IMG/VR virus record: IMGVR_UViG_2585427761_000003
Span: 1 to 7,944 of that record
DNA: 7,944 nt
Source: a virus
Lineage: Duplodnaviria; Heunggongvirae; Uroviricota; Caudoviricetes
Strand: one strand, 5' to 3'
In this document: one piece after another, positions 1 through 6,925 of the stretch
How positions within the stretch are numbered: position 1 is the stretch's first letter
Layout of the letters: every line of letters begins with the position of its first letter
Program-made: the position numbers and the translations under genes
The notes under the pieces: generated by a model
The model's database searches: none
What the model was told of the DNA's origin: nothing
Seen by the model: the letters and a program-made list of their open reading frames with translations, nothing else

Positions 1-262
1 TGACAGTTTCGCGGGAGCCATCTGCAAAAATTGTGGTCACCTTGTAACTGAAGATGAGTCCTCGCAGTTTGATGACGAAATCGTTGACAATATCTTCGGT
101 GCACTCACCAGAGACTTTCTGAAGTAAAGGCGCATACCGCTTAGTTACCGCTCTGATAATTCTTACCTGTCCGGCAATGGCGCTGATATCAATATAAAGC
201 GCCATCGCTGTTTCTTTGCTGATCCCTGGATGCCTTCCATTCTGATGTTTGACTTCGCCCAC
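1..262 (-). CDS. hypothetical protein, 3'-truncated by window edge; gene immediately downstream of the repressor (moron position)
   Basis: Minus-strand frame is open from position 262 to the window edge with no stop; in-frame stop upstream at 286-284. Candidate starts: GTG 262-260 with SD-like AGAGGA (275-270) 7 nt upstream, or ATG 205-203. Translation from the ATG: MALYIDISAIAGQVRIIRAVTKRYAPLLQKVSGECTEDIVNDFVIKLRGLIFSYKVTTIFADGSRETV... Absent from the ORF track, presumably because no stop lies in the window. No family recognised. Confidence 0.5.
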   Translation of the reverse strand, partial: MGEVKHQNGRHPGISKETAMALYIDISAIAGQVRIIRAVTKRYAPLLQKVSGECTEDIVNDFVIKLRGLIFSYKVTTIFADGSRETV

Positions 263-340
263 TGAGAAATCCTCTGTTTCCCCTTAACGCCGGGGTAGCG
301 GAACTAAGACCTGTCGCACCGTTGTGCTTTGATGGAATAC

Positions 341-369
341 ATTGTTCTCTTTAGGTGAACGAAAGTCAA
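341..369 (-). promoter_or_regulatory. putative sigma70 promoter for the truncated minus-strand gene (-35 TTGACT, 17-nt spacer, -10 AACAAT)
   Basis: Minus-strand reading: TTGACT (369-364), 17 nt, AACAAT (346-341). Hexamers are identical to those of the putative rightward early promoter at 870-898. Spacer contains GTTCAC (plus-strand GTGAAC 355-360), the same half-site as the switch-region palindrome. Confidence 0.3.
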
Positions 370-383
370 CATGATGAATACGC

Positions 384-412
384 AAAAAAAAAAAAAACCG
401 CCTTGCGGCGGG
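384..412 (-). terminator. rho-independent terminator for the repressor transcript
   Basis: Plus strand shows A14 (384-397) then GC stem CCGCC (398-402), loop TTGC, GGCGG (407-411). On the minus strand this is a GC hairpin followed by a 14-U tract, 22 nt after the repressor stop (436-434). Confidence 0.8.
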
Positions 413-433: not shown

Positions 434-823
434 TTATTTTTGTCGTGTTATTGGGTCGACGTATTCTGAGTAAAATTCGGTCAGTTTTTGGAGTCGCATT
501 TGAAAAGCTGCCAGCATATTTCTACGTTCTACAGGTGGCAGGTTTCTGTAAACATCAAGCAGGGCCTTCTCGTCATCATCAAGCGCCTCTCTATTTGTCT
601 CTTCTTTCCCTGTCAGTAGCCAAGAAAGGGAAACGTTTGTGGCTTCTGCAATTTTGGCTGCGGAATCTTTACTGATTGTTCCTCTTTTTTTCCATGCGTT
701 GACTGATGAACGACCTACACCAGCGATACGCGCTAAATCTGAACCACTTAAATGATGCTGTTGAGAGATCGTATCTAACCTTTCTGCTAGCGGGGTGTCG
801 TATTGCTTTTTTCTCATGTCCAT
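434..823 (-). CDS. XRE-family helix-turn-helix phage repressor (CI functional analogue), 129 aa, no peptidase domain
   Basis: ORF-track ORF 434..823. HTH signature LSGSDLARIAGVGRSSVNAWKKRG near the N-terminus. Divergent from the Cro-like gene. Only 129 aa, so no room for an S24 (LexA-like) autocleavage domain. The -10 TATAAT (835-830) ends 6 nt before the ATG (823-821), suggesting a leaderless mRNA. Confidence 0.85.
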   Translation of the reverse strand: MDMRKKQYDTPLAERLDTISQQHHLSGSDLARIAGVGRSSVNAWKKRGTISKDSAAKIAEATNVSLSWLLTGKEETNREALDDDEKALLDVYRNLPPVERRNMLAAFQMRLQKLTEFYSEYVDPITRQK

Positions 824-926
824 TTGGCAATTATAACCGTTCAGTGAACACTAACAATTCCTCGAGGTGTTGACTTGTGTTCGTTTTAAGTGAACAATCG
901 TTGTGGTTAGTTGAACTGGAGGTTGT
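824..926. promoter_or_regulatory. immunity switch region: divergent back-to-back promoters and operator-like repeats
   Basis: Leftward promoter (minus strand): -35 TTGTTA (857-852), 16-nt spacer, -10 TATAAT (835-830). Rightward promoter: -35 TTGACT (870-875), 17-nt spacer, -10 AACAAT (893-898), then SD GGAGG (918-922) and ATG 927. Perfect 11-bp palindrome GTTCAgTGAAC at 839-849 lies in the leftward promoter spacer. Related sites: GTTAGTTGAAC at 906-916 (8/11 match) and AGTGAACA at 843-850 and 889-896. Confidence 0.6.
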
Positions 927-1202
927 ATGACAGCATTGGACAAAGCAATAAAGATTGCTGGTGGTATTCGTCCGCTAGGGCGTGCAATAGGGGCTTGGCC
1001 ATCTCAAATACACAAATGGGCAAATGAATACAATGGTCGAGTGCCGACGGGAGAACGGGTTCGTCAAATTTATATTGCAACTGGGGTTACTCCTCATGAA
1101 TTGCGACCAGATTTATACCCGAATCCAACTGACGGGTTGCCTGCTGGAGATAAGGCTAACACACCAAATACACCGGAGTTGATTCATGAAAATCAAGCAT
1201 GA
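927..1202 (+). CDS. Cro-like DNA-binding protein, YdaS family
   Basis: ORF-track ORF. First rightward gene, divergent from the repressor. Motifs A-x-x-I-A-G-G...LGRAIG...P-x-Q-I-x-K-W...TG-V-x-P-x-ELRPD match my recollection of the YdaS/Cro-like family of Rac-type prophages. Good SD GGAGG 4 nt before the ATG. Confidence 0.8.
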   Translation: MTALDKAIKIAGGIRPLGRAIGAWPSQIHKWANEYNGRVPTGERVRQIYIATGVTPHELRPDLYPNPTDGLPAGDKANTPNTPELIHENQA

Positions 1203-1611
1203 ACACATCCGCATGGCGATGAATGCCTGGGCGCGTCCTGATGGCGAAAAAGTTCCAGCAGCTGGAATAACCCAGGCTTATTTTGAGTTGGGTATGACGT
1301 TTCCTGAACTGTATGACGACAGCCATCCGGAAGCCCTGGCTCGCAATACACAGAAAATTTTCCGCTGGGTAGAGAAAGACACCCCTGATGCAGTTGAAAA
1401 AATTCAGGCGTTGTTACCAGCGATCGAAAAGGCAATGCCACCTTTGCTGGTGGCCAGAATGCGCAGCCACAGTTCAGCTTATTTTCGGGAGCTGGTGGAG
1501 ACGCGGGAGCGACTGGTGAGAGACGCTGATGATTTTGTCGCAGTGGCAATCGCCGGTTTCAATCAGATGAACCGTGGTGGCCCGGCAGGAAATGCTGTGG
1601 CAGTACATTGA
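1186..1611 (+). CDS. YdaT-family protein (annotated historically as toxin YdaT; CII-position regulator)
   Basis: ORF-track ORF. N-terminus MKIKHEHI, internal KIQALLPAI and C-terminal AVAVH match my recollection of E. coli Rac YdaT. Overlaps the Cro-like gene by 17 nt; SD GGAG 7 nt upstream of ATG 1186. Confidence 0.75.
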   Translation: MKIKHEHIRMAMNAWARPDGEKVPAAGITQAYFELGMTFPELYDDSHPEALARNTQKIFRWVEKDTPDAVEKIQALLPAIEKAMPPLLVARMRSHSSAYFRELVETRERLVRDADDFVAVAIAGFNQMNRGGPAGNAVAVH

Positions 1612-5095: not shown

Positions 5096-5314
5096 ATGAC
5101 TACATTATTCAGAAAAGAATATCCGAGAAAAAGTAGAGCGACAGAATTTTTGTTTCTCATTATATTTATCGTGTTGATGATACCGATACCCCCGCTATTA
5201 CTGGTCTGGTTTATCGTGAAAATAATTGAGCCAGTTATTGAATTGTATAACGACGTGGTGTGGGCGTCGTTCAGCACACTGCACAATAAAATTAATCCGT
5301 ATAAGGAAAGCTGA
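5096..5314 (+). CDS. small predicted membrane protein (72 aa) in an AT-rich insert
   Basis: ORF-track ORF. Hydrophobic core FLFLIIFIVLMIPIPPLLLVWFIVKII is consistent with one transmembrane helix. Stop (5312-5314) is 1 nt before the HNH start codon. SD is weak (AGGGCGG, 5083-5089), so confidence is moderate. Confidence 0.4.
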   Translation: MTTLFRKEYPRKSRATEFLFLIIFIVLMIPIPPLLLVWFIVKIIEPVIELYNDVVWASFSTLHNKINPYKES

Positions 5315-5315
5315 T

Positions 5316-5681
5316 ATGGCACTGACGAAAAAACAACGTGCAGAGCTGCGCATGAAGTTCGGCGGTCGCTGTGCTTATTGCGGCTGCGAACTTGGCGAAA
5401 AGTGGCATGCAGACCATGTAAAACCGGTCATTCGTTTTGATGGAAATATGCTTCACCAGGAACGTGACGATATATCCAATATGGTTCCGGCATGCCACCC
5501 ATGCAATCTGCACAAGCATTGCAGTAGTCTGGAAGATTATCGGCGAATTATCAGTGATGGTCGTCGTGAATTCCTTGCGTCCGGGAAAGGCAAAGCGCTG
5601 GTTCGTATGGGATTGGTTGAAATGAAATCTGACCCAGTTGTGTTCTGGTTTGAAAAATATCAAGAAGGGGCTACGGCATGA
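5316..5681 (+). CDS. HNH endonuclease (121 aa)
   Basis: ORF-track ORF 5226..5681 trimmed to ATG 5316, which has SD AAGGAAAG (5303-5310); the upstream extension is Cys/Trp-rich and unprotein-like. Classic HNH zinc-finger nuclease pattern: C-A-Y-C-G ... H-A-D-H-V-K-P ... [13 protein letters not shown]. Confidence 0.85.
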
Positions 5682-6227: not shown

Positions 6228-6527
6228 TTATAAGAAATCGGTTTCATAACTTTGCCCACCATGATAGATACCGACAATAAAGACTTTTCTGCTATCAACG
6301 GCAAAAGCAATAATCGTTCTGTGGCGGAAATGAGTTACCCGCATCCCCTGGCGAATATCATCGCGTTTATTGCCCCGATGCGGGAATGTAGAAAACCCAT
6401 CAAGATAATCAAGAAGCGCATTGGCATAATTGTCAGCAATGACGTTCCCTGCTTTCTCCGTTATATACCTGTGCAGGTTGATTATTTGTTGTTCGGCCTC
6501 AGGAGTAATGATGACTTCATATGTCAT
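6228..6527 (-). CDS. parE: ParE/RelE-superfamily type II toxin (99 aa)
   Basis: ORF-track ORF. Starts 5 nt after the stop of a ParD-like RHH antitoxin gene on the same strand. Size and sequence (MTYEVIITPEAEQQI...RVTHFRHRTIIAFAVDSRKVFIVGIYHGGQ) fit the ParE/RelE fold pattern. Confidence 0.85.
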   Translation of the reverse strand: MTYEVIITPEAEQQIINLHRYITEKAGNVIADNYANALLDYLDGFSTFPHRGNKRDDIRQGMRVTHFRHRTIIAFAVDSRKVFIVGIYHGGQSYETDFL

Positions 6528-6532
6528 GCAGA

Positions 6533-6790
6533 TTACTTCCCGGATCGAATCGCGGCGCGAACCTGTGAAATGGAGCGTCCGTTGTTTGGGTTTTCGCGGA
6601 TAGAATCAAGAGAGGGGGCGGCTGAATGCGTTAACCACGCTTCGATTGCTTTATCGCGCTCATTCAGTGCGCGAAGCCCTTCACGAATGACCTCGCTTTC
6701 TGAAGCATAGGCACCGGAAGCCACACGGGCGCGCACCATGTCAGCCATTTCGTTAGTTAATGTAATGCTGAATTGTTGGGTTGTACGCAT
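6533..6790 (-). CDS. parD: ParD-family (ribbon-helix-helix) antitoxin, 85 aa
   Basis: ORF-track ORF 6533..6853 trimmed to ATG 6790-6788, which has SD GAGG with 6-nt spacing; the 21-aa upstream extension is Ser/Gly-rich and unprotein-like. MRTTQQFSITLTNEMADMVRARVASGAYASESEVIREGLRALNERDKAIEAWL matches the ParD pattern (N-terminal beta-strand, G-x-Y-x-S-x-SEV-R-x-x-LR-x-L). Confidence 0.85.
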   Translation of the reverse strand: MRTTQQFSITLTNEMADMVRARVASGAYASESEVIREGLRALNERDKAIEAWLTHSAAPSLDSIRENPNNGRSISQVRAAIRSGK

Positions 6791-6925
6791 GGTAAACCTC
6801 ACGGAGTAGGATAGAACACCATTCGATGATAGCACGTTGCCTGTTGACGACAACAGAAATCAGAGACAATATTGCCGCACGCCAGCTTGAACAACTGGCA
6901 CCTGCTGCGCCAGCAGAGAAAACCG
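6791..6925. promoter_or_regulatory. putative parDE promoter/operator and divergent rightward promoter
   Basis: Minus strand: -35 TTGTCG (6853-6848), 16-nt spacer, -10 TATCAT (6831-6826). Inverted repeat CTGTTG-acga-CAACAG (6841-6856) overlaps this -35 and also a plus-strand TTGACG (6844-6849). A palindrome over the promoter fits RHH antitoxin autoregulation. Hexamer assignments are weak. Confidence 0.35.

Follow-up and report, generated by a model that had tools for sequence, protein, structure and literature searches.

What kind of genetic switch lies in the 103 bp at positions 824–926 of the virus record IMGVR_UViG_2585427761_000003, between a leftward repressor gene (434..823, minus strand) and a rightward Cro-like gene (927..1202, plus strand), and does its repressor message begin at the start codon itself? 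All coordinates are those of the window, by which we mean the whole stretch of 7,944 nucleotides that was analyzed. We propose that 824–926 is the right-operator region of a lambdoid immunity module built from a DicA-family repressor, a YdaS-type Cro and a YdaT CII-like protein, and we regard this explanation, judged in one piece with its promoters, operators, shut-off, induction and establishment, as quite probable. The repressor and cro genes diverge from a short intergenic region with back-to-back promoters; candidate binding sites recur at both promoters, with a second set at a left early promoter, and a CII-type activator gene is accompanied by its target site. The two sigma-70 promoters would fire in opposite directions. 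By its promoters and by the homology of its repressor and Cro, the compact divergent switch described in an initial annotation of this DNA is indeed a lambda-like divergent-promoter region.

The leftward promoter and the repressor message

The leftward, PRM-like promoter has its −10 hexamer, TATAAT, at 830..835 on the minus strand (835→830) and a weak −35 hexamer, TTGTTA, at 852..857 on the same strand (857→852); the spacer is 16 nt long and the two hexamers match the consensus at ten of 12 positions. Six bases (829→824) remain between the −10 and the repressor ATG at 823, as the initial annotation had counted, a hexamer-to-ATG distance inside the 5–8 nt range for leaderless messages. No Shine-Dalgarno (SD)-like sequence stands in the 18 nt before the ATG (no SD-like 4-mer from −18 to −4), and this ATG is the earliest possible start in the open frame, with no in-frame start upstream of it and a further in-frame ATG at 817. 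We infer from the spacing and from the precedent of paaR2 that the maintenance promoter TTGTTA-16-TATAAT starts transcription at the A of this codon (823, minus strand), and that the leaderless, SD-less mRNA, the first 8 nt of which are predicted to be unstructured, would be translated from its 5′-terminal AUG, as is lambda cI from PRM and paaR2 from PRM933P. RefSeq carries the repressor in both 129-aa and 127-aa versions; under the leaderless model the protein would start MDMRKK and have 129 aa.

Homologous loci argue in the same direction. Genomes, phages and viral contigs were searched for repressor homologues, which we collected down to ~30–40% identity, and the family so obtained ranges over Escherichia, Salmonella, Klebsiella, Enterobacter, Lelliottia, Raoultella, Erwinia, Serratia, Sodalis, Chimaeribacter, Xenorhabdus and others. 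Of 19 homologous repressor genes, 17 carry, 6–7 nt ahead of the ATG, a −10-like hexamer (at least four of six matches, with A in the second place and T in the sixth), against a background of 4.3% for ATG triplets in the same loci; the hexamers are TATAAT, TATACT, TACAAT, TAAAAT or similar, and the members that pass span Escherichia, Lelliottia, Raoultella, Erwinia, Sodalis, Chimaeribacter, Serratia, Xenorhabdus, Phlomobacter and the phages PHB10, SEN34 and mEp237. An SD is lacking in most of the homologous repressor genes, yet is found before most of their divergent cro partners. The DNA flanking the spacing is otherwise unalignable among the homologues, and because the spacing is kept nonetheless, far past recognizable DNA similarity, we take it to be under selection. 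For conservation at closer range we compared 18 distinct versions of the intergenic region, from 33 loci, and aligned six relatives across the repressor gene and downstream of it. The blocks invariant in all 18 variants are GCAATTATAACC, which includes the leftward −10 and its flanks, CAGTGAACAC (842–851), the TTG of the leftward −35 (the only part of that hexamer kept in relatives), TGTTGAC, GTTC (879–882), GTGAACAA (890–897) and the SD of the Cro gene. Taking the 17 homologues together with the spacing of paaR2, transcription very probably begins at or next to the start codon, as the initial annotation had supposed, and we hold with good confidence that the message from the leftward promoter is leaderless.

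It could be argued instead that the repressor mRNA is not leaderless, that TATAAT is coincidental or serves a minor start, and that the main promoter lies upstream (for example a YdaT-dependent one around 1179–1196), with SD-independent internal initiation on its transcript. A YdaT box, and hence an establishment-type promoter, is present, and transcripts from it would have a long leader; moreover RacR, also a short non-cleavable repressor, has a leader and an SD. We nevertheless consider this account improbable in view of the −10 fixed 6–7 nt before the ATG in the homologues, far above background, the invariance of TATAAT and its flanks, the lack of both an SD and an upstream in-frame start, and the fact that paaR2, for which a leaderless start has been mapped, shares the spacing. 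RacR, with its normal SD and leader, and dicA, with no suitable −10 at 6–7 nt before its ATG, were both rejected as leaderless precedents. Explanations based on RNA were likewise set aside, as a scan of the window returned no Rfam family and prediction gave no significant structure at the 5′ end of the repressor mRNA or in the left early leader.

Two side observations come from other loci. In the phages mEp237 (locus L026 of our collection, 1501–1893) and SEN34 (L027, 1915–2316), the leftward operon has a repressor paralogue as its second gene, and in both cases a −10-like hexamer precedes the ATG by 7 nt; an SD-like sequence is lacking in SEN34 gene 42, and mEp237 gene 038 shows only a weak GTGA match, which suggests that these second genes have a leaderless promoter of their own. 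In addition, GAGTGTTCACTGCCGGGTTATAAT recurs in six IMG/VR loci among L036–L066 in another genomic context, where the −10 is not followed by an ATG and, upstream, a divergent gene has an SD.

The rightward promoter and the operators

The rightward, PR-like promoter, TTGACT-17-AACAAT, has its −35 at 870..875 and its −10 at 893..898 on the plus strand, with a spacer of 17 nt and a predicted start at ~905. The −35 lies in the invariant TGTTGAC, and on the repressor strand GTCAA(C) is kept in most homologue loci, with ATCAAC in three. The predicted leftward and rightward starts are ~82 bp apart, as are those of PRM and PR in lambda. An SD, GGAGG (918..922, plus strand), of which GGAG is invariant in the 18 variants, precedes the Cro gene, and a CTCC-type SD complement stands before most cro-side start codons in the homologue loci; the promoter would be expected to yield an ordinary leadered cro-ydaT message. 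The gene it serves encodes a 91-aa Cro-like protein of the YdaS family (PF15943; PHROG 35; the Cro proteins 3bd1 and 5w8y in the PDB).

The best-supported operator candidates are two 19-bp inverted repeats of the form TGTTC-N9-GAACA. The proposed primary operator, OR1 (TGTTCGTTTTAAGTGAACA, 878..896), matches this form with zero mismatches and covers the rightward promoter spacer together with four bases of its −10; its arms are invariant and its centre is variable in the 18 variants. The second, OL1 (TGTTCTCTTTAGGTGAACG, 343..361), has one mismatch and is the mirror image of OR1 in a PL-like leftward early promoter, TTGACT-17-AACAAT (341..369, minus strand, 369→341), which has the same hexamers as the rightward promoter and is conserved in the six aligned relatives. 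In OL1 too, the arms are invariant and the centre variable among these relatives, and the site is also found in loci L002, L032 and L033. The PL-like promoter lies just past the intrinsic terminator of the repressor transcript (397..411, minus strand), a GC hairpin followed by a T run that is conserved in relatives. Across the window, TGTTC-N9-GAACA with at most two mismatches occurs 11 times where 3.9 matches are expected, a count reached in none of 200 shuffles. In all 7,944 bases there are just three copies of the hexamer GTGAAC/GTTCAC, every one of them in a predicted promoter spacer: at 355 in the leftward early promoter, at 844 in the repressor promoter and at 890 in the rightward promoter. 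A dimer or higher oligomer of the repressor would most likely bind the repeats at 878–896 and 343–361, and by overlapping the spacer and −10 of both early promoters it would silence lytic transcription.

The redrawn operator map thus centres on the 19-bp repeats and the left promoter, and in this respect it departs from the earlier one. The sites named in the initial annotation are present in the sequence, but its site at 890–895 is one arm of the repeat at 878–896, and the twin of that repeat at 343–361 had been missed. The annotation also had 890–895 and a related site at 906–916 (GTTAGTTGAAC) flanking the rightward −10; in fact 890–895 overlaps this hexamer, and 906–916 varies freely between closely related E. 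coli variants and is missing from the Salmonella relative. We dropped 906–916 as a third operator because of its poor conservation and retain it only within a tentative, weak second site, CGTTGTGGTTAGTTGAACT (899..917), which matches seven of ten arm positions and lies 21 bp centre to centre from OR1, over the rightward start site. The left arm of this weak site, TGTTG, is kept in most E. coli variants; its right arm is variable and is absent in the Salmonella relative. A further palindrome, CCTCGAGG (860–867), between the two −35 hexamers, is not conserved and was set aside as chance.

Two observations on the PL-like promoter may be added. Its transcribed leader (270–340) is unusually well conserved, even in Lelliottia (CCTGTCGCACCGTTGTGCTTTGATGG), and is without significant predicted RNA structure or an Rfam match; and its CGTTGTG is found again at 899–905, next to OR1.

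The element in the repressor promoter spacer

A perfect 11-bp palindrome, GTTCAGTGAAC (GTTCAgTGAAC, 5+1+5), occupies 839..849. The initial annotation was right that it is perfect and that it lies, wholly inside the spacer, between the leftward −35 and −10, but the unit that is conserved proves to be only a half-site. Shuffling the 103 bp produced a perfect palindrome with 5-bp arms in 9% of cases when the loop was fixed at 1 and in 31–53% when loops of 0–4 or 0–10 were allowed, and a repeated 7-mer in 56%; statistics on the 103 bp alone were therefore rejected as proof, and the case rests on context and comparison. The palindrome is perfect in all 15 distinct E. coli-type variants, which is uninformative because the whole block 826–858 is invariant within E. 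coli. In the relatives from Lelliottia, Salmonella and Klebsiella aerogenes, the arm GTTCA (839–843) has become TCGCA, TCTCA or ACTCA, with CAGTGAACAC unchanged and the inner TCA-g-TGA kept in two of the three. The helix-turn-helix of Cro is identical in Lelliottia and nearly identical in Salmonella and Klebsiella, and that of the repressor is nearly identical in all three. Since the arm is lost despite these near-identical helix-turn-helix regions, the conserved unit is the half-site and not the palindrome, and on this comparison the palindrome should be downgraded to a conserved half-site with a lineage-specific second arm.

How far the palindrome as such matters can be argued in either direction. 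The perfect symmetry may be partly accidental, the second arm being a lineage-specific coincidence or a recent improvement, and the working unit would then be the single half-site CAGTGAACAC, a weak, cooperativity-dependent repressor site like lambda OR3. Such a view gains from the changed GTTCA arms beside an invariant half-site, from the uninformative invariance of 826–858 in E. coli and from a chance probability of 0.09–0.5, and it loses from the retention of perfect form in all 15 E. coli-type variants, from the inner TCA-g-TGA of two distant relatives and from full palindromes at the same position in other branches of the family. Among these last is the 4+3+4 palindrome AGCCnnnGGCT, present at the same place in four other specificity groups (L003, L011, L030 and L034), and such palindromes make a site in the promoter spacer a feature of the family. 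We put the view of a partly accidental symmetry and a single working half-site at somewhat below an even chance.

As to function, we favor a shut-off site for repressor synthesis: a half-site that the E. coli lineage has extended to a perfect palindrome. The conserved core of the palindrome, CAGTGAACAC, is one consensus half-site of the 19-bp operators and sits at ~−21 of the maintenance promoter, where a bound protein would exclude RNA polymerase; this is why we propose it as the turn-off site of repressor synthesis. Turn-off could fall to Cro at the flip of the switch, or to the repressor itself once in excess. By analogy with DicA, the primary sites of the repressor would be the 19-bp repeats, and by analogy with YdaS of CP-933P and Cro of PY54, the spacer element would be where the Cro-type protein shuts off repressor synthesis. 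Equally plausibly, a high concentration would bring the repressor itself onto the spacer element, in the manner of lambda OR3, since spacer and operators share an identical half-site. The half-site cores are 7 bp apart in the palindrome and 13 bp apart in the 19-bp sites, so that one rigid dimer cannot bind both alike.

A stricter version would have 839–849 bound by the Cro-like protein only, with the repressor promoter shut off at the flip of the switch and the repressor by itself no binder of the site. YdaS occupies the repressor promoter of CP-933P at low concentration, Cro of PY54 binds exclusively a single palindrome upstream of the repressor gene, and both the 7-bp core spacing and the AGCCnnnGGCT palindromes at the same place would suit a Cro-specific site. 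Against this stand the identity of the half-site GTGAACA with the better arm of OR1 and OL1, which means that the same recognition helix could read it, the loss of the second arm in relatives with an identical or nearly identical Cro helix-turn-helix, and the footprint of PaaR2 across its own promoter. On balance, binding by Cro alone strikes us as a serious contender that is slightly more likely to be wrong than right. We had hoped that natural recombinants would separate the specificity of the repressor from that of Cro, and this approach was dropped, as the helix-turn-helix regions of both proteins always change together with the operators in the recombinants compared.

A broader proposal, which we regard as a joint claim and as somewhat doubtful, is that leaderless expression is strictly conserved and selected across this DicA-like branch in the Enterobacterales, including the second-gene paralogues of mEp237 and SEN34, and that two site geometries derive from one half-site. 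If the former is true, synthesis of the repressor in the lysogen would be deliberately tied to leaderless (70S-type) initiation; if the latter is true, the repressor would use the 19-bp repeats at the lytic promoters and the Cro-type protein the 4+3+4 spacer palindrome.

The repressor family and the systems compared

The 129-aa repressor, assigned by its open reading frame, Pfam, hhalign and PHROG, matches PF07022 (Phage_CI_repr) and PF01381 (HTH_3), carries the PHROG label 'transcriptional repressor/regulator' and has the N-terminal domain of 186 CI as its best solved relative. Its length lies in the ~125–160 aa range of the DicA family, and it shares with that family an N-terminal Cro/CI-type helix-turn-helix, a C-terminal helical region and the motif LxxxExxLLxx[FY]xxLPxxE; hhalign of the repressor family against DicA indicated full-length homology (97% probability, E 8.8e-11, 103 columns). 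No Peptidase_S24 match was found in the protein with Pfam, and it has no cleavage domain. By sequence, the repressor thus belongs with DicA and not with PaaR2, and orthology with PaaR2 was ruled out, as BLASTP returned no alignment and hhalign of the repressor family only a weak, 41-column C-terminal match of 36% probability. Our literature search found no published work on this repressor or its close relatives, in keeping with the earlier description of it as an uncharacterised short repressor, and its phage homologues carry generic annotations only; the 'DicA' of a study on O157:H7 (PMC6915034) was rejected as the same protein because its N-terminus differs.

In function, the switch would work like PaaR2/YdaS/YdaT of CP-933P and like lambda. 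In CP-933P of E. coli O157:H7, the start of paaR2 mapped by 5′ RACE coincides with the translation start, and leaderless expression was confirmed by N-terminal sequencing and mass spectrometry (Jurenas et al., mBio 2021, PMC8630535). PR933P and PL933P share their hexamers, and the arrangement of PL933P is reported to be that of our PL-like promoter; YdaS occupies the repressor promoter at low concentration, and PaaR2 footprints its own promoter (PMC8630535). The CP-933P locus that we retrieved reads GATAAT-TACCAC-ATG, with the same 6-nt spacing from −10 to ATG and a palindrome in the same promoter spacer. The two switches resemble each other further in the divergent short repressor and YdaS-type Cro (separated by 97 bp there and 103 bp here), in left early promoter hexamers that equal those of the right one, and in a closely related YdaT with its box at the ydaS/ydaT junction. 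They differ in that pairwise comparison detects no similarity between our repressor and PaaR2 or between our Cro and YdaS of CP-933P, in that the operators there are 18-bp palindromes of the GTTTAGTAA type in place of TGTTC-N9-GAACA, and in that the repressor gene is followed here by a terminator and not by toxin-antitoxin genes.

DicA/DicC of the cryptic prophage Qin in E. coli K-12 offers a relative of the repressor itself, homologous over its full length, short and without a RecA cleavage site. DicA acts as a repressor of the cro-like gene and of the left operon and as an activator of its own gene (Bejar, 1986; Yun et al., 2012, PMC3441716; PMC10448788). Its operator Oc (TTGTTAGTCATAACTAACAA), which has been validated genetically, lies in the cro-side promoter and has the inverted-repeat form TGTT...AACA; the authors report that two further operator-like sequences in the region of the dicA promoter were not bound by DicA (PMC3441716). 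The proposed OR1 is the same kind of inverted repeat in the same promoter, yet Oc measures 18 bp between arm ends as opposed to 19 bp here, differs in its half-site bases and is placed on the downstream side of the dicC −10 and not within the spacer. For dicA itself no promoter has been defined, and no recognizable −10 is found 6–7 nt before its ATG.

Lambda CI/Cro has in common with our locus the divergent promoters, the leaderless cI message from PRM, operators common to right and left promoters, a maintenance promoter with a weak −35 and a CII-type establishment activator; our repressor differs in lacking a C-terminal peptidase/cleavage domain, and the 19-bp operators are laid out otherwise. 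As no operator abuts the maintenance −35 here, activation in the manner of lambda OR2 cannot be assumed. In immB of the telomere phages PY54 and N15, the repressor mRNA has been mapped as leaderless, and the Cro of PY54 has one palindrome, just upstream of the repressor gene, as its binding site (PMC4488713); the proteins are unrelated to ours, and cro is leaderless there and has a clear SD here. The Gifsy repressors GfoR, GfhR and GtgR are short, non-cleavable and inactivated by antirepressors, and DicA and RacR have been grouped with them (PMC3121763). Their likeness to our protein, compared by description only, lies in this short, non-cleavable repressor type.

The locus would accordingly be a new but ordinary example of a design that has been established by experiment in lambda and CP-933P, revealing no new mechanism; it extends the leaderless-repressor design, as far as sequence comparison can tell, to a separate and uncharacterised repressor family. 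Several points count against this interpretation. BLASTP aligned neither the repressor with PaaR2 nor Cro with YdaS of CP-933P. Two distant members (Pantoea, L014 and L015) fail the −10 test, and with RacR leadered and the dicA promoter undefined, the wider group of short non-cleavable repressors is not uniformly leaderless. The palindrome alone is not statistically significant (P about 0.09–0.5), and its core spacing departs from that of the 19-bp sites. Finally, the functional claims for the switch are drawn wholly by analogy, for this element and its close relatives alike.

Establishment and induction

The ydaT gene (1186..1611, plus strand) encodes a CII-like activator (PF06254; PHROG 163) that is near-identical, in the alignment obtained, to the YdaT-family chain 3c4r in the PDB (E 7.6e-89) and also matches 8bt1 (E 4.2e-79). 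The published recognition site of YdaT is TTGATTN6AATCAA (PMC9986795), and a perfect match, TTGATTCATGAAAATCAA, stands at 1179..1196, spanning the stop codon of Cro and the start of ydaT. An establishment promoter for repressor synthesis is therefore expected there; the box implies one that is leftward and YdaT-activated, as in CP-933P, and YdaT bound to it would drive establishment transcription.

Since the repressor has no autocleavage domain, induction would be expected to proceed as for DicA and the Gifsy repressors, and thus probably through an antirepressor. No antirepressor gene has been identified in the window, where none was sought.

The prophage and its neighbouring genes

The 7.9-kb window comes from an E. 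coli lambdoid prophage, of which it represents the immunity and replication region. DNA 98.6% identical to the window is found in strain EC12 (NZ_CP070229), inside a prophage adjoining tRNA-Ser and mtfA, with kil, dicB and hokD close by. Pfam identified a replisome organiser and a DnaC-like ATPase among the other proteins encoded, and the PHROGs labels agree with the Pfam-based functions of the genes around the switch. Recombination boundaries fall at ~1085 and at 1175–1181, indicating that the repressor, the operators and the helix-turn-helix of Cro are held together as one immunity unit. This immunity type is present in at least 82 complete E. coli genomes, many O157:H7 strains among them, and in IMG/VR viral contigs, and it is for this type that the analysis provides a concrete, predicted map of promoters and operators.

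Some minor features of the window remain to be mentioned. A ParE toxin and ParD antitoxin pair (PF05016 and PF03693) is encoded on the minus strand at 6228–6527 and 6533–6853, in the prophage early region, and an HNH endonuclease domain (PF01844) is found in an open reading frame on the plus strand (5226–5681). The first gene past the PL-like promoter (2–265, minus strand) has an open frame of at least 88 codons that continues past the start of the window; at its place, the annotation of EC12 has a 51-aa DUF1391 gene.

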